This document shows positions 6,723 through 47,840 of a stretch of DNA of 53,701 nt, piece by piece. Location: the NCBI GenBank assembly GCA_001774105.1, contig MEYT01000042.1:1-53701 (forward strand), read 5' to 3'. Origin of the DNA: Candidatus Azambacteria bacterium RIFCSPLOWO2_01_FULL_46_26 (GTDB lineage Bacteria; Patescibacteriota; Minisyncoccia; UBA9936). The notes under the pieces were generated by a model. It ran no database searches. It saw only the letters and a program-made list of their open reading frames with translations, and was not told where the DNA came from. The first letter of the stretch is position 1, and every line of letters starts with the position of its first letter. The translations under genes were made by a program, and so were the position numbers.

Positions 6723-6807
6723 AAAATCAAGCGGTTTTTATTTGCCATTTTTATCTAAATTTTCAAGTCCTAAAAGGACGAAGAAAATTTAGTCATAAAA
6801 CTTAGCA

Positions 6808-6848
6808 CCCTGTTAAATAATTTTGCTTCGCAAAATTATTTAACAGGG
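6808..6848. terminator. Perfect 19-bp hairpin between convergent genes (bidirectional terminator candidate)
   Basis: CCCTGTTAAATAATTTTGC-ttc-GCAAAATTATTTAACAGGG. A second nested hairpin lies at about 6755-6800 (CTAAATTTTC...GTCCTaaaAGGAC...GAAAATTTAG). Confidence 0.7.
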
Positions 6849-6877
6849 TAAAGGTTTTGTTACCAAAAATCCTGCGC

Positions 6878-9715
6878 CTACAGCTTGGATTTTTGGACAA
6901 AGCCCTTTAAATACTCCCCGGTGTAAGATTTTGTATTCTTGGCGATTTCTTCCGGGCTTCCTTCGGCAATGACGCGTCCGCCGCCCTCTCCTCCTTCCGG
7001 CCCCAAATCAATAAGCCAGTCCGCCGAACGCAGCACGTCAAGATTGTGTTCTATAACCAGCACGGTGTTTCCTTTGTTGACAAGTTCACTCAAGACGCCG
7101 AGGAGCCGCCTGATGTCGTCAAAGTGCAGGCCGGTCGTCGGTTCGTCCAAAATGTAAAAAGTCCGGCCGGTCCCGCGGCGCGAAAGCTCGGACGCCAATT
7201 TTATCCGCTGGGCTTCGCCGCCGGAAAGAGTCGTGGCCGGCTGTCCAAGTTCAACGTAGCCCAAACCCACTTCAAAAAGCGTTGTCAGTTTTTGATGAAG
7301 AGCCGGAATCTTTTCAAAAAATTTCATAGCGTCCTCAACCGTCATCTTCAAGACCTGGGCGATGTTCTTTCCTTTATATTCGATTTCCAAGGCCTCTTGA
7401 TTATAACGGCTGCCGCGGCATTCTTCGCATTCAACGTAGACGTCGGGCAAAAAGTGCATTTCAATTTTTTTCAACCCCTGGCCTTCGCAATGTTCGCACC
7501 GGCCGCCTTTGACGTTAAAGCTGAATCTTCCGGCGCCGTAACCGCGAATCTTCGCTTCGTGGCTTTTGGCGAAAAGATCGCGGATGACGGTAAAAATTCC
7601 GGTGTAAGTCGCCGGATTTGAACGGGGCGTCCGGCCGATCGGCGACTGGTCAACGCTGATTACCTTGTCGATATGTTCAATCCCTAAAATTTCTTCGTGC
7701 CTCCCGGGAATCACCTGGGCGCGATAAAATTTCGCCGCCAGGGCCTTGGCCAAAATGTCGTTCACCAAAGTGCTTTTGCCCGAACCTGACACGCCGCTGA
7801 CGCAGACGAATTTTCCCAGAGGAATTTTAACGTCAATATTTTTCAAATTATGTTCAGCCGCGCCTTTGACAACCAAATTTTTTTCATTCTCTTTTTCATT
7901 CAGCGCCGGCGCTTCCCGCCTTTTCATAACCGCGGTCTTTCGTCCGAAAAGATAATCGGCGGTCAGGGTCTTGGCTTTCTTTAAATCGGCGGACGTACCC
8001 TGAAAAATGACTTCTCCGCCGTGGCGGCCGGCGCCCGGACCAAGATCAACCACCCAATCCGCGGCTAAAATGGTCTGCGCGTCGTGCTCAACGACCAAAA
8101 CCGTGTTTCCCAAATCGCGCAAGCGTCTGAGCGTTTCAATCAAACGCGCGTGATCCCGCGGATGCAAACCGACTGACGGCTCGTCCAGAATGTAAAGCAC
8201 CCCGACCAACCGGGAGCCGATCTGGGTCGCGAGCCGTATTCTCTGTGCCTCTCCGCCAGCCAGAGTCGTTGACTCGCGCTCCAGCGTCAGATATTCGAGC
8301 CCCACATCAATTAAAAATTGCAGACGGCCGATGATTTCTTTGACAATCGGGGCGGCAATCGGCTTTTCCGAAACTTTTAAACCGCCGTCCAAAAGATTTT
8401 CAAAAAAATTTTTTGCGGCGCTGATATCCAAAGAACTTGTGTCATAAATGTTTTTTCCGGCTAAAAGCACGGCCAGTGCTTCTCTCATCAGCCGCCTGCC
8501 GCCGCAGGCCGGACATTTTTGAATCACCATGTATTTTTCAAGCTCGGCTCTTGTCCATTCCGACTCGGTTTCTTTCCAACGCCTTTTGAGATTCGGAATA
8601 ACCCCCTCGAACTTTCCGTCCTTTTCTCCGTTCAAAATCAAGTCAATAACCTCCTTAGGCAATTCCTTGACCGGCACATTCAAAGAAAAATTATGGCGTT
8701 CCGCGAGTTCGGAGAGAATGTACCAGTACCAGCTTTGGCGGCCGACCCGATGGGACGCCGAAGCCCACGGCCTGATCGCTCCTTCGGCCAAGGTCAAATT
8801 TTTATTCGGAATGACCAGTTCCTGCGAAACCTCAAGCTGCGTTCCGAGTCCTGTGCAGGCCGGACAAGCGCCGTAAGGACTGTTAAATGAGAAAAGCCGC
8901 GGTTCTATCTGAGGCAAATTAATTTCGCATTCCGGGCAGGCGAACATTTCCGAAAAAATCAAATCATCGGACTTCCGCGCTTTTTTTCCGCTCTTAAAAA
9001 CATTCGCCATCACCAATCCTTTGCCGATCTTCAGTCCGGTTTCCAGCGAATCGACAAGCCGCGGCTTGTCGATTCGCTTGTCAACGACCAGGCGATCGAT
9101 GACCGCCTCAATGTCGTGAATTTTATATCTGTCCAATTTAAGCTCGATTGCTTCTTCAACGAGATGAATCGTCTTGTCGACTCTTACCCTTAAATAACCC
9201 GCCCTTTGAATTTCCTCCAAAATTCCGCGATGTTCGCCTTTCTTCCCGCGGATGACCGGCGCTAAAATCGCGATTTCGCTTTTAGCGGGCAATTTTAAAA
9301 TTTGATCCGCGATTTGCGAAACGCTCTGTTTTGAAACCAGCCGGCCGCATTTGGGGCAGTGCGGTTTGCCGATTCTGGCGAAAAGAAGCCGGAGATAATC
9401 GTAAATTTCCGTAATCGTCCCGACGGTTGAACGCGGATTTTTTGAAATGCTTTTCTGGTCAATGGCGATGGCCGGACTCAAACCCTCTATCTTGTCCACG
9501 TCCGGCTTGTCCATCACGCCGAGGAACTGTCTGGCGTAAGAAGAAAGCGACTCAATGTAGCGGCGCTGGCCTTCGGCGTAGATCGTGTCAAAAGCCAAAG
9601 AGGATTTTCCGGAACCGGAAAGCCCCGTGATAACCACCAACTTGTCGCGGGGAATCTCAAGATCAATGTTTTTGAGATTATGAACCCTCGCGCCTTTAAT
9701 AACGATTTTATCCAT
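6878..9715 (-). CDS. uvrA: Excinuclease ABC subunit A
   Basis: Two ABC ATPase modules ([23 protein letters not shown]), zinc-finger Cys clusters and LSGGEAQR signatures are present. I place the start at ATG 9715 ([17 protein letters not shown]) because an extended -10 TGTATAAT lies at 9728-9735, inside the longer ORF-track version. Confidence 0.95.
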
Positions 9716-9727
9716 ATTTAGTTTCGC

Positions 9728-9735
9728 ATTATACA
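9728..9735 (-). promoter_or_regulatory. Extended -10 promoter (TGTATAAT) of uvrA
   Basis: TGTATAAT lies 12 nt upstream of ATG 9715, which implies a very short or absent leader. Confidence 0.6.
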
Positions 9736-9803
9736 TTAAACGTCCGAAACAGTAAAGTCCTGCATTAATATGAATCAATTTGCTCAATCAGCTCTTCCTA
9801 TAA

Positions 9804-9850: not shown

Positions 9851-10576
9851 TTATTGCGCGCCATCCCAGACGCGTTGAAGACAGCGATGCGCGCGTTCCA
9901 TTCCGGTGTTTAGGTTGGGACTGGAAGCGTCGCCGGGCATTATTTCTATGGCTGTGCACTCTTGACTCAGGCCATTTCGTTTAATGAGGTCACGGAATGA
10001 CGGCGAGGACAGAAGCCGGTTGATGCGTTCGGTAAGCGCCTGTTGCTGCGCGTAAATATCGTTCAATGCGGCATTATTTTCTTTTGTTCTCTTTGCCCAA
10101 TCCAGCGTTGCGTTGCTCAAATCGTTAATGCGTTCATTGAGTCCTGCCGCGTACATATCCAGAGTGTCCGCGTGGGCGTTTATTCTGCCCCCCCAGTCGT
10201 TCAATTGCCCGGCTTTTGTGTTGCAGGCATTCACAAAGTTCTCGTCTTCAAATGTGCCCGTGCATTGAGCGTTATGAGCGATGACTTGCGCGTTTTGGTT
10301 GGCTGCCTCTGCGTCATGAGCGGCTAGATCTTTTTTGTAATTTGCGATCGCCCCGCTCAAAAGCTCGTCGGTGGCAATCAGCCGTTGTTCTTCCTGCGCG
10401 AGCGTCGCGGCTTTGGCTTCAGCGCTGTTTTTATCTTTTTGCAATTGCTCCAACTGACCCTTAAGATCATTTACGCGTTCAAGAATGTCGTTTGGAACCG
10501 CGGCAAACGAGTAATTCACCGTCAGCAAAAAAACAAAAACCATTGCCGTTTTCAACCACATTTTCACCAATTTCAC
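9851..10576 (-). CDS. Secreted coiled-coil protein with conserved cysteines, unknown function
   Basis: 241 aa. It has a signal peptide (MKLVKMWLKTAMVFVFLLTVNYSFA), a long Ala/Gln/Asn-rich helical region and 4 Cys. It has its own promoter, an AAGGAGG RBS and a terminator. Confidence 0.7.
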   Translation of the reverse strand: MKLVKMWLKTAMVFVFLLTVNYSFAAVPNDILERVNDLKGQLEQLQKDKNSAEAKAATLAQEEQRLIATDELLSGAIANYKKDLAAHDAEAANQNAQVIAHNAQCTGTFEDENFVNACNTKAGQLNDWGGRINAHADTLDMYAAGLNERINDLSNATLDWAKRTKENNAALNDIYAQQQALTERINRLLSSPSFRDLIKRNGLSQECTAIEIMPGDASSPNLNTGMERAHRCLQRVWDGAQ

Positions 10577-25980: not shown

Positions 25981-26982
25981 CTATTTTTCTATTTTATTCA
26001 AATCGGCCAATATCTGTTTCGTCACTTGCGGGTTTTCTTTGAGAAATTGTTTTGACACTTCCATGCCCTGGCCGAGCTTCGCGTCGTGATAATTAAGCCA
26101 ACTGCCGCTCTTGTTTATAACGCCGTATTTAATCGCGGTATTGATGATATCGCCTTCGTAAGAAATCCCTTCGTTGTACATAATGTCGAATTCCGCGGTC
26201 TTAAAAGGGGGGGCGACTTTATTTTTCACCACCTTCGCGTTCACGCGGTTGCCGACGATATCCTCCCCTTTCTTAATCTGAGCCGACCGCCTGACTTCAA
26301 TTCTTACCGAAGAATAAAATTTCAGGGCTTTGCCGCCGGGCGTCGTTTCCGGATTGCCGAACATCACGCCGATTTTTGTTCTGATCTGATTAATAAAAAT
26401 AATGGTTGATCCGCTTTTGCTGGCGATTGAAGTCAATTTTCTCAATGCCTGCGACATCAAACGCGCCTGAAGGCCGATGTGCTGATCGCCGATTTCGCCC
26501 TCAATCTCGGCTCGCGGCGTCAAAGCGGCCACGGAGTCAACGACAATCACGTCAACGGCCCCGGACTTGACCAAGCTCTCCACGATTTGAAGCGCCTGCT
26601 CCCCGGAATCCGGCTGAGAAATTAGCAGATCGTCAACTTTAACGCCGATTTTTTTGGCGTATTCCGGATCAAGAGCGTGTTCGGCGTCAATAAACGCCGC
26701 AAGTCCCTTTTTCTTCTGCGCTTCGGCCACAATATGAAGAGCTAGGGTCGTCTTGCCGGAACTTTCATGACCGTAAATTTCAATTATTCGGCCTTTCGGC
26801 ACGCCGCCAACGCCCAAAGCAATATCCAAAGAAATTGAACCCGTGGGGATAGCGTCAACGTCAACTTTTTTGACTTCGCCCAATTTCATAATCGTCCCTT
26901 CGCCGAACCGCTCGCGAAGCTCTTTTACCGTCTCGGACAACACCCTGACTTTTTCGTTTTTTTCTTCGTTTGACGTAGCCAT
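25981..26982 (-). CDS. recA: Recombinase RecA
   Basis: [19 protein letters not shown] (Walker A), FIDAEHALD and IIFINQIR are present. ATG 26982 (MATSNEEK) is preferred; the TTG at 27000 lies inside the upstream palindromic repeat. Confidence 0.97.
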
Positions 26983-26991
26983 AAATTGTAT

Positions 26992-27090
26992 CGATGCCAA
27001 TATACGAATTTATACTAATTATACGAATGCGGAAATTTAAAACAGTATTTTATTCGTATTATTAGTATGCATTAGTATATTAGTATCGCG
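26992..27090. repeat. ATACGAAT/ATACTAAT-unit palindrome, copy A (5' of recA)
   Basis: The left arm is CGATGCCAATATACGAATTTATACTAATTATACGAAT. The right arm is ATTCGTATTATTAGTATGCATTAGTATATTAGTATCGCG. It fills the gap between the rodZ-like stop and the recA start. Confidence 0.9.
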
Positions 27091-27091
27091 T

Positions 27092-27769
27092 TTATTGCTG
27101 TAATATTATTTTTCTGCTTATTAATTTGCTTTTGCCGAATTTATTGGCGGCTTTAATTTCAATCAAATTCAGACCGGCGCTTAAATTGACGTAATCGAAA
27201 AATTTTCCTTCTTTGGAGACCTCCAGCCGCCTGCCGTTAACGGTCAGATCGGCGCCAATCTCCGCCAATCCTTTCAGAGTCAAACTCGGATTCAAGGTTA
27301 CGAAATCATTCGCCGGATCCTCAAGAATCAGCTTCGGCGGGCCGATTAAAAATTTCATTTGATGCCAGAAGAACAAAAATATCGCCAAAAAAACGAGTAA
27401 AGCGACAAAAACGGAAAAAATTTTCGGAGTAATGACAAAAACCGATTTATTTCCGGACAGAATTTTTCCTGATTTAACCCCGCCAAACCCGTCCGTCTGC
27501 CGATCTTTTTGGTCCGATAAACCCCGTTCCTTCCTATATTGATCGATTATTTCATTCGCGTCAAGATTCAAGACCTTGGCGCATCTTTTCAAGAAACCGA
27601 CGATAAAAACGCCTGACGGCAATTTGTCGTATTGGCCGCTTTCCAGCCGCGTCAAATATTTTTTTTGAATTTTAGTCAAAATCGCCAGATTCTCAAGAGC
27701 CAAACCCATTGACTCTCTGGCTTGTTTCAGTCGCTCGGCTAATTTTTTGTCCGACTCAATATTCACCAT
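27092..27769 (-). CDS. Helix-turn-helix (XRE-type) membrane protein, RodZ-like architecture
   Basis: It has an N-terminal HTH (LAERLKQARESMGLALENLAILTKIQKKYLTRLESG), one TM helix and an extracytoplasmic beta-rich C-terminus. ATG 27769 overlaps the ftsK stop by 14 nt. Confidence 0.65.
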   Translation of the reverse strand: MVNIESDKKLAERLKQARESMGLALENLAILTKIQKKYLTRLESGQYDKLPSGVFIVGFLKRCAKVLNLDANEIIDQYRKERGLSDQKDRQTDGFGGVKSGKILSGNKSVFVITPKIFSVFVALLVFLAIFLFFWHQMKFLIGPPKLILEDPANDFVTLNPSLTLKGLAEIGADLTVNGRRLEVSKEGKFFDYVNLSAGLNLIEIKAANKFGKSKLISRKIILQQ

Positions 27770-30080
27770 ATTCTTCTTTTGAAACCAATATCTCGCGCGG
27801 CTTGGCGCCGTCACCCGGACCTATGACTCCTTCTTCTTCAAGCATATCCAGCAGCCGTGCCGCCCTGGCGTAACCGATTCTTAAGCGCCTTTGAAGCAAT
27901 GAAGCCGAGGCCTTGCCTGCTTCAACGACCAGTTTCCTTGCCTGCAAATAAAGTTCATCGTCTCCTCCCTGGCCGGAATCGTCGTCAAAATTCAATTCTT
28001 TCGGAAAATCCTTTTGTTCCAAAGCGCTGCTCAAGCCGCCGGTTTCGCTTTGGACCTCGCCGCTTTCTCCGAATATCCCGCTCGCGTTTTTCATGTATTC
28101 AACGACCTTTTTAATTTCCTGCTCGGTTAAAAAACTTCCCTGAATGCGCCGGGGTTTGAGCGAATCGGCGGACAGGAAAAGCATATCGCCGCTGCCGAGC
28201 AATTTTTCCGCTCCGGCCATGTCAAGAATCGTCCGTGAATCGATTTGGCTGGCGACTTGAAAAGCAATACGGCTTGTGATGTTCGCTTTGATCAAACCGG
28301 TAATGACTTCAACCGACGGCCGCTGGGTTGAAACAATCAAATGAATGCCCACGGCCCGGGCCATTTGGGCCAGCCGGACGATTGAACCTTCCACCTCTCT
28401 CGGAAAAGCGGCCATTAAATCCGCCAATTCGTCAATCATAATGACGATATACGGCAGACGTCCATCTTGGGGATTTTTTCCGTTGATTTTGGAATTGTAT
28501 GAACCGATGTCTCTGGCTCCGACCTGTTCCAATTTCTCGTATCTCCTTTCCATTTCTCCGACCGCCCAGCGCAAAGCATTGATTGCTTTGCGGCCTTCGG
28601 TAATCACCGGACTCAAAAGATGCGGAATTCCGTTGTAAACCGAAAGTTCCACTCTTTTGGGATCAATAAAAATAAATTTCAAAACTTTGGGGGAATTGCG
28701 GTAAAGAAAACTGATGATGATGTCGTGGATGCAGACCGATTTTCCGGAACCAGTGCTGCCGGCGATCAAAAGATGAGGCATTCGGCCCAAATCGGCGTAT
28801 ACCGGACTGCCGGTGACGTCCCTGCCGAGCGCGAAAGTCAGAGACGAAGGCGCTTCGTTAAACGCTTCAATTTCCAACAAATTTTTCAGACGGACGAGCG
28901 AGGCGATCTTATTCGGAATTTCAATGCCGACCAGGGATCTCCCCGGAATCGGCGCTTCTATTCTGATGGGGTGCGCCGCCAAAGCGAGAGCCAAATCGTT
29001 TTGAAGAGCCATGATGCGGGATAATTTGATGCCCTGAGCCGGCTTTAAAGTATATTGGGTGACGGTCGGGCCGACGTTGACCTCGCCCATTTCAACGTCA
29101 ATTCCGAAATTTTCAAGCGTCCGCTTGATTATGTTGGCGTTGGCTCTGATGTCTCCGCTTGAAGGAACTCCTCTTTCCTCGTCCAAAAATTTTAAAGACG
29201 GCGGCGAATAATCGTCTTCCATGGGCGAGGCCGCGCTTTCGACTGTTTCAAATTCTCCTTCTTCGTCCGTCAATTCGCGCTCAACTCCTTTTTCTTCTTG
29301 TTCCGAGCCGATTTTCTTTATCTCAAAAACCGGCGGATTGGAAAAAAAACTGGTTACAAAATTGCCTCGCCCCGTTTCGTTTTGAATTTGAGGCGGCGCG
29401 GGCTCGGATTCGCGCGCTTCAATAATCTTGTCGCTACCCGAAGGCGAAAAAAACGGCAACGCCTTAATCGGCGCCGAAGATGCGACTTCCGATTCCGCCG
29501 CTTCCTCCTGGATTATTTTCTCCTCACCAACCGTTTCGCGTTTTTGCCAAAAATCGCGAGGCGAAACATTCGCGGCGATTAAAACGGAGATTAAAAATCC
29601 GGCGGCGAAAATCACCAGCGCGGCCCAAAATCCGAAGAAATGCAAAAAGGGATAAGCAAAAAGAAATCCCAGCCACCCGCCCTGAAAATTTTGGCCGAAA
29701 AGCTCAAAAAGCCCCAAAAGAGTCAAAAGAAAAAGACCGGCGCCGAAAAGAGTATGAAAAAAAACGCTCTTCTTTTTTTCGCCCAGCTCCTCAACCGGAC
29801 TTTTACCGAATAAAAAAATGATTCCGATTGCCGCGAACACGGCCGGCAAAACATAGTATCCCCATCCGAAAATCAAAGTCGTTAAATTATAAAAAATTTC
29901 TCCGCCCCTGCCGGTGAGATTGAAAAAACTTAGCGCGACAAGCGCCGCGCCGGCGAGAAAAATAACGCCCCAGACCGCTCTTTTGGTGTCATGCGAAAGA
30001 TTAAACCGGCTTCGCGCTTCGCCCCGTCTCGGCGGGACCTCGCTCTGTTCGCTTTTGTTTTTATTGCTTCTGAACGCCAT
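27756..30080 (-). CDS. ftsK: DNA translocase FtsK/SpoIIIE
   Basis: It has N-terminal TM helices, a linker, a motor domain (LLIAGSTGSGKSVCI, IVIMIDELADL) and a C-terminal gamma winged helix (ASASLLQRRLRIGYARAARLLD). ATG 30080 is preferred. Confidence 0.93.
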   Translation of the reverse strand: MAFRSNKNKSEQSEVPPRRGEARSRFNLSHDTKRAVWGVIFLAGAALVALSFFNLTGRGGEIFYNLTTLIFGWGYYVLPAVFAAIGIIFLFGKSPVEELGEKKKSVFFHTLFGAGLFLLTLLGLFELFGQNFQGGWLGFLFAYPFLHFFGFWAALVIFAAGFLISVLIAANVSPRDFWQKRETVGEEKIIQEEAAESEVASSAPIKALPFFSPSGSDKIIEARESEPAPPQIQNETGRGNFVTSFFSNPPVFEIKKIGSEQEEKGVERELTDEEGEFETVESAASPMEDDYSPPSLKFLDEERGVPSSGDIRANANIIKRTLENFGIDVEMGEVNVGPTVTQYTLKPAQGIKLSRIMALQNDLALALAAHPIRIEAPIPGRSLVGIEIPNKIASLVRLKNLLEIEAFNEAPSSLTFALGRDVTGSPVYADLGRMPHLLIAGSTGSGKSVCIHDIIISFLYRNSPKVLKFIFIDPKRVELSVYNGIPHLLSPVITEGRKAINALRWAVGEMERRYEKLEQVGARDIGSYNSKINGKNPQDGRLPYIVIMIDELADLMAAFPREVEGSIVRLAQMARAVGIHLIVSTQRPSVEVITGLIKANITSRIAFQVASQIDSRTILDMAGAEKLLGSGDMLFLSADSLKPRRIQGSFLTEQEIKKVVEYMKNASGIFGESGEVQSETGGLSSALEQKDFPKELNFDDDSGQGGDDELYLQARKLVVEAGKASASLLQRRLRIGYARAARLLDMLEEEGVIGPGDGAKPREILVSKEEYGEY

Positions 30081-30680: not shown

Positions 30681-30717
30681 CAAGACCCGACACAAAACTT
30701 ATTACGTGCGGGATAAA

Positions 30718-30778
30718 CCCCGTTAGAAATAAGACGCTTTTGGCGTCTGCCGCAGCTTTGTGCGGATTTCTAACGGGG
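30718..30778. repeat. CCCCGTTAGA...TCTAACGGGG inverted repeat enclosing two inner hairpins
   Basis: CCCCGTTAGAAAT-[AGACGCttttGGCGTCT]-[CCGCAgctttgTGCGG]-ATTTCTAACGGGG. Confidence 0.88.
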
Positions 30779-30794
30779 TAAACCCGTCGCGTTG

Positions 30795-35524: not shown

Positions 35525-37036
35525 TTATCTTGCTTTCCATTTGAATGAAATCGTGAATAGGATATTCTGCGTTTGAACCAAACTTCCCAGCGGCAAATTC
35601 ACGTCGGAGAAATCGGGAGAGTTTTCAAGCTTATTTTTGAAAAGCAGGGCCGCGTCGCGGCTTGACGCGATGCCGGTAATGCTTATGGGCTGGTCCAAAG
35701 AGCTTAAACCTAACTGCGTCAGATTGATACCCGGAGGTGCCAAAGCCAAGATTTTTTCAATGACAGGAGAAACGAAATTGGCGTTTTCGGCGGCCGGAAC
35801 CATTATTTTCAGTTTTTCGTTGATTTCCGACGCTTTCTGTTCCAAATCGCCCAAAGTAACGGGTCCAGAAATAATTCCTCTTGTTTCAAGCTGCCGATCC
35901 ACTCCCGTCAAAATAGAGTTAAGAAAAAAATGCGAGCCGACGAAAAGAATCATAATCGCGATGGACAGCGCGGCGATTATGTCGCTCCATAAAGTAAAGT
36001 AAGAAACAAACTTTCTCTTCGCGTAAGCCGCTTCGGTTCCCACGGGCATTAAACTGTTTATCGCGTCCTCAACTCTCGGAATCAATCCTCTTAGAGCCGT
36101 GCCGACCGCTATCAACCATGAATCGTCAAACAAAGGAAAATTTTTGGCCCTATGAATCTTTAATTTAAACGGCTGATGCTCAAGGCCGGTTTTGGTTTGC
36201 AATTGATCAAGAATTCCCGCTTTCACGGCTTCCGGAGCGAGCAATGTAAATTTTTTAAGAACGGTTTCCTTGTGTTCCGACTGAAAAAAATTCACGGTTA
36301 AATTTATCTCTTTCGCCAAAACATCCAAAATGCGTTCCCGGGTTAATTCGGCTTCTTTTTCCTTAGCGAGATGAGCCGACCAAGCAACAAAGCGATTAAA
36401 TCTTACGAAATTTTTCTGCGTGATAACCAAATTAATTCCCTCTTCGTTCAAATACGCGATTAATCCCGCCTCGTCTTCAAAATTTTCAACCAGCCGAGCC
36501 AAACTTTGCGACGGCGATTCAAAAGCCAAAGCCATAAAACCCGCTTTATTCAGCGCGTCAATGTAAGCGTCCGCTCTCTCTTTTCTGACCGCTTCCAGCA
36601 GGACTTCCCTGCTTATGACGGAATCAATCTGAAACTCGCTCTGTTCCTGCCAATCAAGATAAGTATCTGATGGAGCAACCGGCAAGACCGTGCTGATGTT
36701 CAAATTCATCGCGTCTTTTATTTGCTCCGGGTTTAAATTCGGAAATTGAAAAACTTTTGAATAAATGCCTTCCGGTGGCAGGGAAACGATCACGTAAGGC
36801 GTTTTATCCAAATATCCGCCCGCTTTTTCTTTTATTTTTTTCAAGGCCGAAATTAAGCCCTCTTTATCTTTGACTTCGCCGTTTTCAAGAATTGACGGCG
36901 CCAAGCGAACGCCGGCTTGAACAATTAAGGATATTGTTGAATCCGTTTTATGAAAAAGCAAAAGCCGCAGGGACGAATCCGATATCGCCAGCCCCGCGAT
37001 TTTTTCTCCCGGATAAAATAGGTTAACTATATTCAT
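35525..37036 (-). CDS. pilM: PilM-PilN fusion (actin-like ATPase domain + TM + PilN-like domain)
   Basis: 503 aa. The N-terminal ~330 aa is PilM/FtsA-like (GLAISDSSLRLLL, two subdomains). This is followed by the TM helix LWSDIIAALSIAIMILFVGSHFF and a periplasmic-type PilN-like tail. Confidence 0.7.
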   Translation of the reverse strand: MNIVNLFYPGEKIAGLAISDSSLRLLLFHKTDSTISLIVQAGVRLAPSILENGEVKDKEGLISALKKIKEKAGGYLDKTPYVIVSLPPEGIYSKVFQFPNLNPEQIKDAMNLNISTVLPVAPSDTYLDWQEQSEFQIDSVISREVLLEAVRKERADAYIDALNKAGFMALAFESPSQSLARLVENFEDEAGLIAYLNEEGINLVITQKNFVRFNRFVAWSAHLAKEKEAELTRERILDVLAKEINLTVNFFQSEHKETVLKKFTLLAPEAVKAGILDQLQTKTGLEHQPFKLKIHRAKNFPLFDDSWLIAVGTALRGLIPRVEDAINSLMPVGTEAAYAKRKFVSYFTLWSDIIAALSIAIMILFVGSHFFLNSILTGVDRQLETRGIISGPVTLGDLEQKASEINEKLKIMVPAAENANFVSPVIEKILALAPPGINLTQLGLSSLDQPISITGIASSRDAALLFKNKLENSPDFSDVNLPLGSLVQTQNILFTISFKWKAR

Positions 37037-37051
37037 ACGCGCTTCGCTCGT

Positions 37052-37156
37052 GCGATACTAATATACTAATGCATACTAATGATACGAATGGATACTAATG
37101 TTTTTTTATTCGTATTTATTAGTATAATTCGTATGCATTCGTATATTGGCATCGCG
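37052..37156. repeat. ATACGAAT/ATACTAAT-unit palindrome, copy B (5' of pilM/N)
   Basis: GCGATACTAATATACTAATGCATACTAATGATACGAATGGATACTAAT ... ATTCGTATTTATTAGTATAATTCGTATGCATTCGTATATTGGCATCGCG. Confidence 0.9.
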
Positions 37157-42837: not shown

Positions 42838-43302
42838 CTATTCCGAGATTCTCCCTTCCCTGCTCACCGTAATCGTCCTGATGTTCGCCGTGTCGCTTGT
42901 CAGAAAAACCGCGACTGAAACATCGGCGGCGACCTTGCCGGTGTTTTTTAAAAACACGACATCAAGAGTGTTTTCGGAGGACGGCTGGCTGAAATTCACG
43001 CGCTCGTCAAGATAAATCATTTCCTGAATTTGACCCGCGCTGAAATCGCTCGCGGTTGAAAAAAGCTGATAATAATGGGCGCCGGAAACCGGATTAACGA
43101 AATGAATTCCCCATCTCAAGCCGTTCTCTCCCGACATTGCTTTTGCCTGCGCTTTTCTTAACTGCAGAATTATTTCTCCCGCTCCCTGATCCAGCGAAGC
43201 CGAACGAAAATAACCGACCCCAAGCATTGTGGTAAGAGAGGCCAAGATCGCCAAAATTCCGACGACGATAATAAGTTCAAGCAAAGAAAAACCCTTTTGC
43301 AT
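42838..43302 (-). CDS. Prepilin-type N-terminal cleavage/methylation domain protein (minor pilin)
   Basis: MQKG|FSLLELIIVVGILAILASL. 154 aa. Confidence 0.85.
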   Translation of the reverse strand: MQKGFSLLELIIVVGILAILASLTTMLGVGYFRSASLDQGAGEIILQLRKAQAKAMSGENGLRWGIHFVNPVSGAHYYQLFSTASDFSAGQIQEMIYLDERVNFSQPSSENTLDVVFLKNTGKVAADVSVAVFLTSDTANIRTITVSREGRISE

Positions 43303-43317
43303 AAACGCTTCGCTTAC

Positions 43318-43452
43318 GCGATGCCAATATACCGCGATGCTAATATACTAATGCATACGAATTATACCAATAAATGCGAATAAGAAATACCGGTCTTCAT
43401 TCGTATTATTAGTATGAATTCGTATATTGGCATCGCGGTATATTAGTATCGC
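43318..43452. repeat. ATACGAAT/ATACTAAT-unit palindrome, copy C (between pilC and the minor-pilin operon), with doubled termini
   Basis: GCGATGCCAATATACCGCGATGCTAATATACTAATGCATACGAAT ... ATTCGTATTATTAGTATGAATTCGTATATTGGCATCGCGGTATATTAGTATCGC. Confidence 0.9.
43361..43369 (-). promoter_or_regulatory. Extended -10 (TGGTATAAT) in the centre of the pilC/minor-pilin palindrome
   Basis: The plus strand reads ATTATACCA. It lies 58 nt upstream of ATG 43302. Confidence 0.5.
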
Positions 43453-43456
43453 ACTA

Positions 43457-44674
43457 TTACCCTATCGCTCCCAACATTTGGTAAATCGGAAGGATTACCG
43501 ACAACGCGATAAAAGCGACTATCAATCCCATAATCAAAAGCAATATCGGCTCAAGAAGAGTAACCATGTTCTTTAGAGTGGCGTCAACCTCTTCGTCGTA
43601 AAAAACGCTTAGAGTGTCCAAAATAAGGTCCAAACTTCCGGCCTTTTCGCCGATGCCCACCATGTTGCTGATTAAACGCGGAAAAAATTTTTCGTGATGC
43701 CGAAACGCCGAACCCAAAGAAATCCCCCTTGCGACGTCTTCCTCGGCGATTTTTATGAAGATTTCTTTGTATCTGATGTTGCCGATGGAATTAGCCGTAA
43801 TGTTCAAAGCCTCAATAATCGGGATGCCACTTTTTAGCAAAATCGCCAAAGTGTGCAAACTGCGCGCGAAAATTATTTTTTTCATCAGACCTTTGATAAT
43901 CGGCGCCCTGAACATAATCTCGGTCAGCAATTTTTGCCCGAGTATCGTTCTCCATGCGAAAATCAAGGAGACAACAAGGATGGCGAAAAATACGCCAAGC
44001 ACCGTAACGTGAGCGGAAACCCAATTGCTCGCGTCTATCAAAAACTGGGTAATGGCCGGCAGTTTTATTCCGGTTTCCTGAAAGGTCTTGGTCAGGCGCG
44101 GCAAAACCACGGTCAAAAGCAGGACGACGATGCCGAAACTGGCCGTTAGCAAAATAGCCGGATAAACCATCGCGCTCCTGATTCGGCTTTTGAGCTCATA
44201 CTCGGTTTTCATCTGAACGCTCAACCGCTCAAGAACCTCAATCAAATTGCCGCTTTTTTCTCCGGCGCTGACAACGCTGATGAAGAGCGTGGAAAAATGG
44301 CGGGGAAAATCGCCCAGAGCCGAAGACAGAGTCCGGCCTTTTTCAAGGTTCGCTTTGATACTCGCGTAAATTTTTTTCAAAACCGCTTTTTCGGTGTCAA
44401 AAATCAGAATGTCCATCGCTTCAATGACTCCCACGCCCGCTTTAAGCATTATCGCGAGATGCTTGGTAAAAAAAATTTTGTCCAAAAGAGTGATTCTCTG
44501 CAAAAAAACAATCTCTCTCTTCACGGCGGCCGCTCCGGCTTTTTTTTCTTTCACCGAAATCGGCGTCAATCCCTGCCGCGAAAGATAGTTCAAAACCGCC
44601 TCCTTGTTGGAGGCGTCGTATTCGCCTTCCTTCATTATGCCGCGTCCGTCAACGGCGGTATAGAAATATAACAT
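43457..44674 (-). CDS. pilC: Type IV pilus platform protein PilC (GspF family)
   Basis: 405 aa with two GspF-type repeats, three TM segments and the typical C-terminus LPIYQMLGAIG. Confidence 0.9.
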   Translation of the reverse strand: MLYFYTAVDGRGIMKEGEYDASNKEAVLNYLSRQGLTPISVKEKKAGAAAVKREIVFLQRITLLDKIFFTKHLAIMLKAGVGVIEAMDILIFDTEKAVLKKIYASIKANLEKGRTLSSALGDFPRHFSTLFISVVSAGEKSGNLIEVLERLSVQMKTEYELKSRIRSAMVYPAILLTASFGIVVLLLTVVLPRLTKTFQETGIKLPAITQFLIDASNWVSAHVTVLGVFFAILVVSLIFAWRTILGQKLLTEIMFRAPIIKGLMKKIIFARSLHTLAILLKSGIPIIEALNITANSIGNIRYKEIFIKIAEEDVARGISLGSAFRHHEKFFPRLISNMVGIGEKAGSLDLILDTLSVFYDEEVDATLKNMVTLLEPILLLIMGLIVAFIALSVILPIYQMLGAIG

Positions 44675-47018: not shown

Positions 47019-47738
47019 TTAAAAGTCATTCGTGTCCGGCAAAATCGTCAAATTGCTTCCCACTTCAAACAATTTCGCGTTGTTTCCTCCGTCTTTCGCG
47101 GCCTTGTCGTCTTCGCCGCTTTCGCCGTAAAACTCGGATTCCAGCCGGCCGTTGATTTCAAACGTATGCGGCTTTGTTGACGCCAAACCGGTTCGGCAGG
47201 CATAACGGTAAATTAAATCAAGATTCGTGATATTGCTGACGGAGTTAACTCTATTGACCGGATCAACCGGCAAATTGGAAATAGGCGCGCCGCCCTTGAT
47301 TGAATCCAAAGGAGTCGGAATCCAGCCGCTGCCGTCAACTTTGTAAATGTCGGTGTTTGAAACCTGTTTAAAAGCGACGAAGGCCGAACCGACTGGCGGC
47401 AGGTCGGTTATGACGGCCCCCGGGCTATCCGAAGGATAACTTACCCAAATTAAATCGCTTCCGGTTCCGCCGGCGCAATAAGTGTCCGAATTAACCGCGT
47501 TGTCAAGTTTCGGCTGATTCGTTGAAACAACATACAAACCGAGAGCGGCCCGCAATGTCGTCATGTCCGAAAGCCGCTGGGCGTCGCGGCTCTTTCTCAA
47601 AATCTCGGCCGGGTTCAGCAAAAAAACGACCATTGATATCAATATCGCCAAAATGGCGATGGTTATCAAAAGCTCCAACAACGTGAATCCCTTTTTTGAA
47701 TTTTGAACTACCTTTTTATTTGTATCTATTTGTATCAT
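47019..47738 (-). CDS. Type IV pilin (paralog 1)
   Basis: MIQIDTNKKVVQNSKKG|FTLLELLITIAILAILISMVV. ATG 47738 is preferred because the longer ORF translates the promoter and repeat. The extended -10 lies at 47773-47781. Confidence 0.88.
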   Translation of the reverse strand: MIQIDTNKKVVQNSKKGFTLLELLITIAILAILISMVVFLLNPAEILRKSRDAQRLSDMTTLRAALGLYVVSTNQPKLDNAVNSDTYCAGGTGSDLIWVSYPSDSPGAVITDLPPVGSAFVAFKQVSNTDIYKVDGSGWIPTPLDSIKGGAPISNLPVDPVNRVNSVSNITNLDLIYRYACRTGLASTKPHTFEINGRLESEFYGESGEDDKAAKDGGNNAKLFEVGSNLTILPDTNDF

Positions 47739-47767
47739 TAGTATGCATTCGTATATTGGTATCGCAT
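47739..47767. repeat. Half copy (one arm) of the same element, forming the 5' UTR of pilin paralog 1
   Basis: The plus strand reads TTAGTATGCATTCGTATATTGGTATCGCA. Degenerate units ATTTGTATC x2 continue into the first codons of the pilin (MIQIDTNK). Confidence 0.8.
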
Positions 47768-47772
47768 TATTT

Positions 47773-47781
47773 ATTATACCA
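47773..47781 (-). promoter_or_regulatory. Extended -10 (TGGTATAAT) of pilin paralog 1
   Basis: The plus strand reads ATTATACCA. It lies directly after terminator 47797-47820 and 34 nt before ATG 47738. Confidence 0.6.
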
Positions 47782-47796
47782 AATCCCGCGCAAAAC

Positions 47797-47820
47797 AAAA
47801 AGCCCCTCAAGGGGCTTTTT
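47797..47820 (-). terminator. Rho-independent terminator after pilin paralog 2
   Basis: AAAAAGCCCC-tcaa-GGGGCTTTTT. Confidence 0.88.
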
Positions 47821-47840
47821 GTGTTTAAGGCCTAAAAACA

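Follow-up and report, generated by a model that had tools for sequence, protein, structure and literature searches.

Why does the gap between pilC and a minor pilin gene of a Candidatus Azambacteria (Patescibacteria) genome hold a long imperfect palindrome, and why do related palindromes stand beside recA, a pilM/pilN fusion gene and a second pilin gene in the same 53,701-nt stretch of DNA (hereafter, the window)? [quoted passage not shown] A preliminary description took the palindromes to partition the pilus cluster, either as an RNA hairpin serving for processing or attenuation or as a multi-site operator of a DNA-binding regulator. The results presented here point elsewhere. The four window copies, A to D, probably belong, as non-autonomous copies devoid of an ORF, to a family of selfish cassettes with hairpin ends that is widespread in Patescibacteria/CPR. 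Copy C is best read as a selfish element akin to intervening sequences (IVSs) and MITEs, tolerated by its host as an RNA fold-out.

The coordinates of the copies and of their neighbours are collected in Table 1. Copy C is built of a cap and ATAC[G/T]AAT units. Its arms (43318-43374 and 43396-43452) are 57 nt long, 84% complementary and 21 nt apart, and the doubled cap reported earlier is borne out, with two caps in each arm. The centre, formerly put at about 45 nt, is much shorter (17-21 nt). The TGGTATAAT sequence is present at 43361-43369 (minus strand) as described, only not in the centre: because the left arm runs on through ATACCAAT and ATGCGAAT, it is a unit junction internal to that arm. 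That a true repeat family is at hand is clear from the counts, which far exceed chance expectation: the cap GCGATRCYAATATAC matches 9 times in the window against 0.21 expected and the unit ATACKAAT 24 times against 2.5, the latter always within the four copy sites. A profile of 172 arms taken from other genomes recovers the seven arms of copies A-D and the extra cap, and no further copy in the 53.7-kb window. The elements are non-coding and 99-135 nt in size, with arms of 35-57 nt as terminal inverted repeats.

Pfam agrees with the earlier identification of the flanking genes as recA, pilM/N, pilC and pilins (N-methyl). All four copies had been placed immediately 5' of a minus-strand start codon; this holds for A, B and C, with ACGAGCGAAGCGCGT (37037-37051) separating copy B from the pilM/N ATG, but copy D contains the pilin start instead. 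Arm D holds the ATG of the second pilin (47738-47736) inside ATACTAATG, which yields the leader MIQIDTNKKVVQNSKKG followed by FTLLE, and this start matches a 239-aa gene call in relatives (L001-L006). Directly upstream lie a terminator-like hairpin and TGGTATAAT, both conserved in strains devoid of the arm; judged by its sequence, this TGGTATAAT region is likely the promoter of the second pilin gene. The elements themselves include no intrinsic terminator, their stems being rich in AT with no T run behind them, and the whole window gave no match to an Rfam family at gathering score.

Table 1. Palindromic elements of the window and genes adjacent to them.
Feature	Position	Strand	Remark
recA	25981-26982	-	downstream of copy A; true start is ATG 26982, 8 nt past cap
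Copy A, full palindrome	26991-27089	.	HTH_25 stop (27092) to recA ATG (26982)
HTH_25 / Glucodextran_B protein gene	27092-27814	-	upstream of copy A
pilM/pilN fusion gene	35525-37036	-	downstream of copy B
Copy B, full palindrome	37052-37155	.	PilX-like stop (37157) to pilM/N ATG (37036)
Minor pilin (N_methyl)	42838-43302	-	downstream of copy C
Segment without counterpart in empty allele	43297-43452	-	blastn break points and alignment
Copy C, full palindrome	43318-43452	.	left arm 43318-43381, right arm 43399-43452
Copy C, left-arm caps	outer 43318-43332, inner 43334-43348		followed by units
Copy C, centre	43382-43398		between arms
Copy C, right-arm caps	inner 43422-43436, outer 43438-43452
pilC (T2SSF)	43457-44674	-	upstream of copy C; stop codon 4 nt from outer cap
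Second pilin gene	47019-47738	-	start codon within arm D
Copy D, lone arm	47718-47765	-	cap 47751-47765 and 4-5 units
Terminator-like hairpin, then TGGTATAAT	47773-47821	-	hairpin 47798-47821, TGGTATAAT 47781-47773; directly upstream of arm D

The family extends far beyond pilus genes. A 19-mer of cap plus unit was located in no fewer than 118 stretches of MAG DNA, the majority of them labelled as CPR lineages, and 101 of these 118 loci contain arrays of three or more units. Altogether 180 arms were detected in 895 kb of sequence and none in shuffled sequence. Nearly all elements (131 of 134) are intergenic and take up the gap between a stop codon and a start codon, the outermost units lying at a median distance of 5 nt from the former and 12 nt from the latter. 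The earlier remark that no copy lies 3' of a convergent gene pair generalises to the whole family: convergent gaps hold none of the 42 full elements, although they make up 11.5% of the background (P=0.006). Genes downstream of the element in various genomes encode EF-Tu, DnaK, ribosomal proteins, RNase III, MreB and MraW, and arm types show no polarity relative to them. Two fixed arm haplotypes were considered and rejected, arm signatures being very diverse. Besides operon junctions, the family resides in rRNA: one element occupies the helix-45 loop of 23S rRNA, a classical IVS site (L031), and other members are found inside 23S (L110) and in the 23S-5S spacer. Copies embedded in rRNA carry an additional GC-rich stem outside the caps, which mRNA copies do not have. 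No match was obtained in IMG/VR; preservation of the 19-mer across deep CPR lineages with nothing to indicate carriage by phages is not what a purely selfish MITE usually shows. The preliminary description had also considered a generic REP/MITE scattered at random; the family does behave as a generic mobile palindrome, but its placement relative to gene starts is non-random.

What the arms belong to is revealed by longer members of the family, in which they enclose a gene. Six cassettes with a GxxExxY ORF between the arms were present among motif-selected loci, and when GxxExxY homologues were picked by protein similarity only, five of five turned out to be bounded by arms with caps outward, which makes 11 GxxExxY loci bounded by cap and unit arms. 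The palindromes and the nuclease cassettes thus have their arms in common. A full-length cassette consists of an outer cap, ATAC[G/T]AAT-type units (3-5 in each arm), the gene of a GxxExxY PD-(D/E)XK nuclease of about 134 aa, and the array again in inverted orientation. The ORF matches TIGR04256 (E 1e-18 to 1e-20) and also PF13366. The catalytic residues (E, D and ExK) do not vary, and by sequence the active site is intact; the N-terminus MHTNxTN, encoded by the arm, is nearly invariant and disordered in the predicted structure. Sequence search found no homologue of solved structure, and by fold the model resembles PD-(D/E)XK enzymes no more than weakly (Cas4, lambda-exonuclease and Hjc-type nucleases). 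The 53.7-kb window encodes no GxxExxY gene. All 11 cassette ORFs are co-oriented with the host operon, unlike the ORF-less copies, which show no orientation bias; simple loss of the ORF in situ does not account for all palindromes. Searches in Rfam and in the literature (unit strings, GxxExxY, PDDEXK_3, CPR MITE/REP, IVP cassettes) found no description of the family, in agreement with the earlier impression that it is not a recognised one.

Comparison with close relatives demonstrates that copies C and D are dispensable. Copy C is absent from strains L213-L216 and arm D from L213 and L215, in each case with flanks about 98% identical. In the empty allele the gap between pilC and the pilin gene measures 11 nt, and 20 nt of that allele (L213 11222-11241) are replaced in the occupied one by 43297-43452, a segment made up of the palindrome, a GTAAGCGAAGCGTTT module (43303-43317) and the minor-pilin ATG CAA (43302-43297). 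Alignment and blastn reveal no target-site duplication. The insertion thus exchanged the host spacer and start codon for element-linked sequence, and the start codon and first codons of the minor pilin are unlike in the two alleles. The same GTAAGCGAAGCGTTT module stands 5' of rplF in another genome (L007).

At the recA locus, copy A is present in all 10 RecA contigs, these being near-clonal. Synteny of the HTH_25 gene and recA is kept in several CPR relatives, and their junction carries a palindrome in L084, as it does in the window, and an ORF-containing cassette in L054; syntenic L138 and L158 have no inverted repeat there. The upstream region of recA in L099 was rejected as an empty site, its gene context being different. 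The junctions after pilC, upstream of recA and between rpsF and ssb are occupied by the element recurrently in distant genomes. Some of them are filled by other palindromes: unrelated ones at the pilC-pilin junction of L130, whose PilC is 86% identical, and at the HTH-recA junction of L189 and L133. In L131 and L132 the same junctions carry IVP cassettes, whose inverted repeats are different. Such recurrence, together with the unrelated palindromes, could equally mean that a hairpin at these positions is useful to the host.

These observations suggest how such an element could persist. Its spread would be driven, through homing or recombination, by the nuclease working either in cis or in trans, and the unit array would plausibly be the site that the element's own nuclease binds. 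Because it lies inside operons, the element would be transcribed together with its host operon. In the resulting RNA the paired arms would fold the insert out, and at the base of the stem the stop codon upstream would come to lie next to the start codon downstream, so that operon expression (or, in rRNA, folding of helix 45) survives. In a full-length cassette the start codon of the nuclease lies in the arm and would be buried by the same stem. Folding predictions agree with the earlier proposal that read-through RNA forms a long hairpin: sense-strand elements reach -31 to -65 kcal/mol (z -5 to -7) and copy C -64.8 kcal/mol (z -7.2). Compensatory covariation between the arms was looked for and the opposite pattern was found. 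Variable positions are anti-correlated, the two arms being systematically unlike at every one of them, and the longest stretch of perfect pairing between arms is 8 nt in the median case. This systematic mismatch weakens the pairing and is only partly explained.

The hairpin may instead have been selected by the host in the pilus or recA transcript, as an RNase III processing site, stability barrier or attenuator, the element family being merely a source of such hairpins. The strong predicted folds, the convergent gaps that are never occupied and the unrelated palindromes at the same junctions speak for this, and RNase III excises comparable 23S rRNA stems in other bacteria (PMC4990558). We nevertheless consider it unlikely. 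Strains with nearly identical flanks dispense with copies C and D, two syntenic genomes have no inverted repeat before recA, and the anti-correlated arms with their short perfect runs are not what selection for pairing would leave; moreover, the extra GC-rich stem confined to rRNA copies suggests that the arms alone may not be a cleavage substrate. Less probable still is that the element is a portable expression module, providing outward TATAAT or TGGTATAAT promoters and/or a start codon for short-leader or leaderless mRNA. About half of the arms do have an outward TATAAT, copy C includes TGGTATAAT, the start codon follows 3-9 nt beyond the cap, too near for a Shine-Dalgarno sequence, the second pilin starts inside arm D, and GTAAGCGAAGCGTTT-ATG, a module found also before rplF, takes the place of the original start in the occupied allele. 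But TATAAT faces outward in 20 of 38 start-proximal arms and just as commonly, in 15 of 38 distal arms, backwards into the upstream gene, so it is a symmetric by-product of the unit sequence. A scan for consensus promoters returned weak 9/12 matches only, elements sit in rRNA genes and mid-operon, where promoters are unneeded, and the conserved TGGTATAAT next to arm D lies upstream of it and is found also in strains without the arm.

The multi-site operator, which would serve a host transcription factor governing a competence-like regulon of type IV pilus genes and recA, has very little probability in our estimation. All four window copies do lie at pilus genes or recA, the units repeat at about one helical turn, and about 9 of the 118 motif loci contain pilB or pilC, where random 8-kb loci would give roughly 1-2. 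The units resemble the streptococcal ComX cin-box TACGAATA; readings as such a box, as a LexA box or as DNA-uptake sequences were rejected in view of the diverse housekeeping and rRNA neighbours and of copies that are too sparse. The housekeeping genes listed above and the copies inside 23S rRNA also count against an operator, as do arms that bound a nuclease ORF, near-identical strains without C and D, the absence of polarity toward a regulated gene, and sites linked to no alternative sigma factor or regulator. A host regulatory role of the palindromes is thus unsupported, and neither a site specific to the pilus cluster nor its partitioning agrees with a family found in so many stretches, in rRNA, beside varied housekeeping genes and as the termini of a nuclease cassette. 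If the copies are selfish, whatever they do to pilus or recA expression would be incidental or co-opted later, and would not account for their presence.

A broader reading, which the sequences make conceivable and which we put forward only tentatively, is that the cassettes represent an unrecognised class of Patescibacteria mobile elements. Here the GxxExxY nuclease would bind the arrays and carry the cassette into rRNA loops and operon junctions by homing or recombination, the arms would fold out of RNA and so hide the insert from the host, and ORF-less palindromes would spread or persist and could provide host genes, pilins among them, with start codons. Kin to them, as parallel families of a larger class, would be the 23S_rRNA_IVP cassettes and the other unit-array palindromes that occupy the same junctions; if true, this would account for how classical 23S IVSs arose.

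As selfish cassettes the elements would matter in several respects. Operon junctions of CPR would be recurrently colonised by hairpin-ended cassettes and their gene-less remnants, including junctions at type IV pilus and recA genes, which are thought to be central to DNA scavenging in CPR. The large GxxExxY / PDDEXK_3 family of unknown function would gain a concrete, testable role, and classical 23S intervening sequences would be linked to elements living outside rRNA. On the practical side, assemblies break at the palindromes and start-codon calls are displaced by them (in the window, two pilin genes start in or next to element sequence), and strains that differ in nothing but an insert provide a natural experiment on operon-expression effects.

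Among the closest known parallels is the 23S IVS of Coxiella, Leptospira, Salmonella and other bacteria, likewise a small selfish insert with complementary termini, a long stem and an optional ORF (about 120 aa), which host RNA tolerates by fold-out; a mobile origin of IVSs, with the ORF needed for mobility, has already been hypothesised (PMC4990558). IVSs occur in rRNA, in helix 9, 25 or 45, whereas most copies of the present element, including all four in the window, lie at protein-coding operon junctions; one family member does sit in helix 45. The IVS ORF is an S23p / 23S_rRNA_IVP four-helix bundle and not a GxxExxY PD-(D/E)XK protein (TIGR04256 / PF13366), and the IVS stem is a near-perfect 28 bp, while the element ends in arrays of 8-nt units with systematic mismatches. 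MITEs and similar repeats (Correia/NEMIS of Neisseria, ERIC, RUP, Rickettsia palindromic elements) are likewise non-coding, about 100-150 bp long, multi-copy, intergenic, presumably co-transcribed and present or absent among strains; they too have terminal inverted repeats common to a longer ORF-bearing element and possibly outward -10-like sequences. The element differs from them in replacing the host start-codon region without target-site duplication, in an ORF for a small PD-(D/E)XK nuclease and not a DDE or Y1 transposase, and in its spread across a superphylum and not one genus. Further parallels are free-standing homing genes (seg/mob of T-even phages, for instance) and homing enzymes of the PD-(D/E)XK type, among them I-Ssp6803I. 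In homing genes, too, a small nuclease gene lies between conserved host genes, co-oriented with them and patchy among relatives, and the neighbours of the element (recA, rRNA, EF-Tu, RNR, ATP synthase) are of the typical homing-target type; homing genes, however, normally lack long inverted repeats and leave no ORF-less palindromes, and the element has both. REP/BIME sequences with RAYT transposases (PMC3733652) are likewise short, imperfect, numerous and extragenic palindromes with a proposed effect on mRNA stability, but are 20-40 nt long with a GTAG/CGTC tag and lie mostly at 3' ends, whereas the element has a GCGAT cap and 100-135 nt, lies at gene starts and mid-operon, and is without RAYT.

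The arms of the palindrome between pilC and the first minor pilin gene (copy C) are 57 nt each, 84% complementary and spaced by 21 nt, in agreement with the preliminary description of this 154-nt gap as essentially one imperfect palindrome. Its centre, put there at about 45 nt, measures just 17-21 nt, so that TGGTATAAT, formerly placed in the centre, falls inside an arm as a unit junction. Each arm combines a cap with an array of ATACKAAT units. In the window, the cap GCGATRCYAATATAC is matched 9 times (0.21 expected) and the unit 24 times (2.5 expected), confirming the three related sites proposed earlier: all matches are confined to copy C, two further full palindromes, at the junction of a HTH_25 gene with recA (copy A) and 5' of a pilM/N fusion (copy B), and a lone arm at the second pilin gene (copy D). 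A window scan with a profile of 172 arms from other genomes returned the seven known arms and an extra outer cap in copy C, and no more. Pfam assigned the neighbours to recA, a HTH_25 protein, the pilM/N fusion, pilB, pilC and several N-methyl pilins. The lone arm had been taken to lie 5' of its pilin gene; in fact the ATG (47738-47736) is inside it, and the leader reads MIQIDTNKKVVQNSKKG followed by FTLLE.

Coordinates of the elements, neighbouring genes and other repeats in the window and in loci fetched from other genomes (L numbers)
Feature	Sequence	Position	Remark
Copy A, cap and unit matches	window	26991-27089	
Copy B, cap and unit matches	window	37052-37155	
Copy C, cap and unit matches	window	43318-43452	
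Copy C, arms	window	43318-43374 / 43396-43452	
Copy D, cap and unit matches	window	47737-47765	
pilC	window	43457-44674	minus strand, upstream of copy C
Minor pilin (first)	window	42838-43302	minus strand, downstream of copy C
GCGAAGC module GTAAGCGAAGCGTTT	window	43303-43317	copy C
GCGAAGC module ACGAGCGAAGCGCGT	window	37037-37051	copy B
GCGAAGC module	L007	~180-195	5' of rplF
Terminator-like hairpin	window	47773-47821	between two major pilin genes
Perfect palindrome	window	6807-6849	
Palindrome, 37-nt arms	window	9025-9098	apparently within ORF 6878-9787
Inverted repeat, 27-nt arms	window	30704-30792	
TGAAACW palindrome	L130	1288-1375	pilC-pilin junction
CTAAGCAC palindrome	L189	263-411	HTH_25/recA junction
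TTCTTAAT-type palindrome	L133	1131-1272	HTH_25/recA junction
23S_rRNA_IVP genes	L131	5563-5994, 7222-7695	outside rRNA
23S_rRNA_IVP gene	L132	5544-5982	outside rRNA
23S_rRNA_IVP gene	L125	11572-12000	outside rRNA, between host genes
23S_rRNA_IVP gene	L126	8300-8718	outside rRNA, between host genes
GC-clamped palindrome	L128	~9950-10016	in cassette left arm
ATGTCAAAT direct repeat	L213	~6935-6990	pilin-2 5' region, no arm D

Comparison with other genomes showed that the arms seen in the window serve as the inverted ends of a GxxExxY nuclease cassette. Six genomes have a "+" arm and, 372-403 nt further on, a "-" arm, with a single ORF between them; the arm encodes its first codons (…MHTN[DY]TN…). 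The protein belongs to the GxxExxY family (TIGR04256, E 1e-18 to 1e-20; Pfam PDDEXK_3), which numbers 837 clusters at E ≤ 1e-10; the best 120 of the matches are 61-72% identical to the query, and the named ones among them span several CPR classes. As an unbiased test for arms, five homologues were picked solely on protein similarity and size of contig. All five possess arms on both sides with caps outward and sit between host genes oriented as they are, the next host ATG following a few bases past the cap; altogether, 11/11 cassette ORFs point the same way as the host operon. The site of copy A carries a palindrome in L084 (RecA 65% identical) and an ORF cassette in L054 (RecA 73%), with near-identical element boundaries in all three. 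L128 has a cassette directly 5' of pilB and a lone arm between pilB and pilC; the left arm of this cassette contains a nested insertion, a small GC-clamped palindrome (cccgcc…ggcggg).

Residues E38, D70 and E80-x-K82 of the nuclease are invariant across 30 homologues. In its AlphaFold model (pLDDT 85) the arm-encoded N-terminus is disordered, and matches to Cas4, lambda-exonuclease-like, AdnAB, tRNA-endonuclease and Hjc folds are weak (E ≥ 1e-3); sequence search detected no homologue of solved structure. PDDEXK_3 is listed as a family of unknown function with multiple horizontal transfers.

The window makes up the entire 53,701-nt contig of a Candidatus Azambacteria MAG from Rifle groundwater, and the family reaches well past this genome. 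An exact scan for the cap with the first unit (GCGATRCYAATATACKAAT) in one genome per GTDB species matched at least 118 stretches, the majority from MAGs labelled CPR, where our rough, uncomputed estimate of the chance expectation across the whole collection is ~35. CPR labels among the matches listed are Jorgensen-, Harrison-, Staskawicz-, Taylor-, Woese-, Magasanik-, Lipton-, Nealson-, Wolfe-, Sung-, Doudna-, Komeili- and Levybacteria, "Saccharibacteria" and Paceibacterota. About 20 of the matches listed bear other labels, chiefly "uncultured Gammaproteobacteria" from automated binning (~16 MAGs), with one each of Bacteroidota, Rikenella, Elusimicrobia, Omnitrophota and a delta proteobacterium. 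Several of these MAGs have full elements and CPR-like gene content, so mis-binning or coarse automatic naming may lie behind such labels; L010, L079 and L121 have the appearance of chance single matches. Arrays of at least three generalised units (ATRCNAAT) occur in 101 of the 118 loci listed, and the motif-found loci (895 kb) hold 180 arms, as against none in shuffled sequence. The arm layout is conserved: the cap unit abuts unit 1, followed by a 2-nt spacer, unit 2, a 1-nt spacer, unit 3 and occasionally units 4-5. The arms form 134 elements, 46 full palindromes and 88 lone arms, part of the latter being paired ends of longer elements.

Two of the four window copies are insertion/deletion polymorphisms within the species. 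Four independent Azambacteria assemblies (L213-L216) from the 90%-identity PilC cluster of the window are 98.0-98.3% identical to it over the flanking pilus genes; in them copy C is absent and the pilC-to-minor-pilin gap is just 11 nt. The empty allele reads TAA-AGTCACGAAAT-ATGAAATACGAGAAGGG… and the occupied one TAA-TAGT-[135-nt palindrome]-GTAAGCGAAGCGTTT-ATGCAAAAGGG…, the segment without counterpart being 156 nt (43297-43452) versus 20 nt in L213; no target-site duplication is seen when the two alleles are compared. Element-linked sequence with a new start (MQKG before F) stands in place of the original spacer, start codon and first leader codons (MKYEKG before F). A GTAAGCGAAGCG-T(n)-ATG module also follows the cap 5' of rplF in L007, a Jorgensenbacteria MAG, and a variant follows copy B. 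Copy D is absent from L213 and L215, which keep the upstream terminator and TGGTATAAT and differ in 5' UTR, start codon and leader. Ten near-clonal contigs that encode identical RecA all have an identical copy A. The window copies adjoin, include or supply the start codon of the gene downstream.

Several details of these loci deserve mention. Between outer cap and host ATG, copies B and C have a GC-rich module with GCGAAGC, found again 5' of rplF in L007 and of another gene in L029; in copy C, where the prediction is a 9-bp hairpin taking in the start codon, the module belongs to the sequence that the empty allele lacks. The bidirectional-looking terminator hairpin AAAAAGCCCCTTGAGGGGCTTTTT, followed by TGGTATAAT, is kept in strains with and without arm D. 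In L213 the pilin-2 5' region has ATGTCAAAT twice plus GGATGT, a short direct repeat that another unit array might have left behind.

As to placement, 131 of the 134 elements lie outside ORFs. The avoidance of convergent gene pairs, reported earlier from the window copies, holds family-wide (0/42 full palindromes versus 11.5% of background gaps, P=0.006). The outermost units are a median of 5 nt from the upstream stop codon and 12 nt from the downstream start codon; measured from the caps, these distances are 1-5 and 3-9 nt, so that a Shine-Dalgarno sequence has no space. Downstream genes include RecA, Hsp70, EF-Tu, SSB, RNase III and DivIC (two each), PilB, MreB, MraW, S7, L6, CTP synthase, RNR and ATP synthase; upstream genes include PilC and S6 (three each), M16 peptidases and the HTH_25/Glucodextran_B protein (two each), S12, S19, L23, L7/L12, RpoA and NusB. 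In L031 an element lies inside 23S rRNA and occupies precisely the terminal loop found at Rfam model positions ~1206-1226, which we take to be helix 45. Helix 45 is the classical 23S intervening-sequence site (PMC4990558). L110 holds two identical copies inside its 23S match and probably a third, to judge from 23S-like flanks; L043 has an element in the 23S-5S spacer. These rRNA-linked copies, including both in L110 (where a group I intron is also present), and the post-pilC copy of L085 have an extra ~20-bp GC-rich stem outside the caps (cgctcctgctcgtcgctacc / ggtagcgacgagcaggagcg), absent from the remaining mRNA-context copies.

The pilus neighbours in the window would suit a host operator or competence regulon, and the preliminary description treated the palindrome as a pilus-cluster element. 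The varied housekeeping neighbours and the 23S rRNA copies rule out a pilus- or competence-specific regulon, and we regard this reading as highly improbable. A portable promoter or start module would agree with start codons brought by the elements. Outward-facing TATAAT occurs in 15/38 distal versus 20/38 proximal arms, no polarity of arm type toward the downstream gene was found, and such a module seems quite improbable. An RNA hairpin selected by the host for processing or stability, compatible with a selfish element, has the predicted folds on its side: as anticipated for read-through RNA, the three full window copies are predicted to form long hairpins from either strand (-31 to -65 kcal/mol, z -4.9 to -7.2), with 1x1 mismatches every few base pairs. 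Against it, variable positions of mirrored units are anti-correlated in the 46 full elements (identical in 42/176 versus 70 ± 6 expected; as low in 0/10,000 permutations), spacers seldom match between arms (spacer 2 in 1/38 elements versus 13.7 expected), and the longest inter-arm perfect run has a median of 8 nt. This anti-correlation suggests that the sequence of the conserved unit positions is what is constrained, with protein recognition the probable reason, rather than their pairing, and we think host selection of the hairpin unlikely.

The asymmetry of the arms is explained in part only. Two fixed arm haplotypes were rejected, arm signatures being highly diverse. The 'gc' spacer that creates the ATG of ORF cassettes is limited to the ORF-5' arm (6/10 versus 0/10), so the asymmetry may be inherited in part from cassettes. 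Selection against long perfect palindromes is a candidate cause, with DNA instability, inter-arm recombination or RNase III cleavage of host mRNA as candidate grounds.

The same junctions are occupied by unrelated elements. L130 (PilC 86% identical) keeps the ancestral TAAAGTCA at the pilC-pilin junction; after it comes a TGAAACW-heptad palindrome (32-nt arms, 81% complementary, z -5.0) that extends into a new ATG. This points to two independent insertions at the junction, in the window and in L130. Its tandem GTTTCAA run ends in the pilin ATG, and the gene caller set the pilin start ~30 nt early. L131 and L132 (PilC 44% identical, matching cluster gene order) have 23S_rRNA_IVP genes (PF05635, Avd/S23p-like) between pilB and pilC, and L131 another immediately after pilC, each flanked by 18-26-nt inverted repeats of other units (TAAC-, GAGTAG- and CTGGT-type). 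One of the L131 genes was fused to the next pilin by the gene caller, and the L125 and L126 genes likewise carry their own 18-26-nt inverted repeats of reiterated short units. At the HTH_25/recA junction none of eight further syntenic relatives has ATACKAAT arms; L189 has a palindrome of octamers (46-nt arms, 80% complementary), L133 one with 30-nt arms, and L138 and L158 have no palindrome. Several families of one design, unrelated in sequence, thus share these junctions, either because such gaps are permissive or because a hairpin there is useful.

The window holds other repeats too. A perfect palindrome with 20-nt arms (ACCCTGTTAAATAATTTTGC / GCAAAATTATTTAACAGGGT) has kin (CCCTGTTAAAT…ATTTAACAGGG) nested within ATACKAAT elements of L087 and L092; it may represent another mobile palindrome family, or else a kind of terminator. 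A 37-nt-arm palindrome (zero spacer, 76% complementary) apparently lies within a 969-aa ORF. An inverted repeat 5' of a 1070-aa surface-protein gene (78% complementary, arms 35 nt apart) has no sequence kinship with the ATACKAAT family.

We consider it likely that the window copies belong to the nuclease-cassette family and are selfish elements. The individual steps proposed below are more tentative, and somewhat doubtful. The nuclease would mobilise cassettes, and possibly ORF-less copies in trans, via homing or recombination, the unit arrays being its putative binding sites. Elements would be co-transcribed with host genes, and arm pairing would fold the insert out of host RNA, bringing stop and start codons together at the stem base; in rRNA, helix 45 would merely be lengthened. 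In read-through transcripts of full cassettes, the start codon of the nuclease would be concealed by the stem. IS elements hide start codons as a device against outside transcription.

The earlier remark that the palindrome matches no described element family agrees with Rfam and the searchable literature, where we found no description of it; a dedicated survey of CPR rRNA insertions mentions no palindromes or inverted repeats. The elements are not classical intervening sequences, as the window copies lie outside rRNA and the ORF family differs, nor canonical MITEs, as they have neither target-site duplication nor known transposase, nor REPs or BIMEs, as they lack the tag and their size and position are wrong. 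The family works like 23S intervening sequences and like MITEs of the Correia/ERIC type, and in genomic habit it resembles free-standing homing endonuclease genes.
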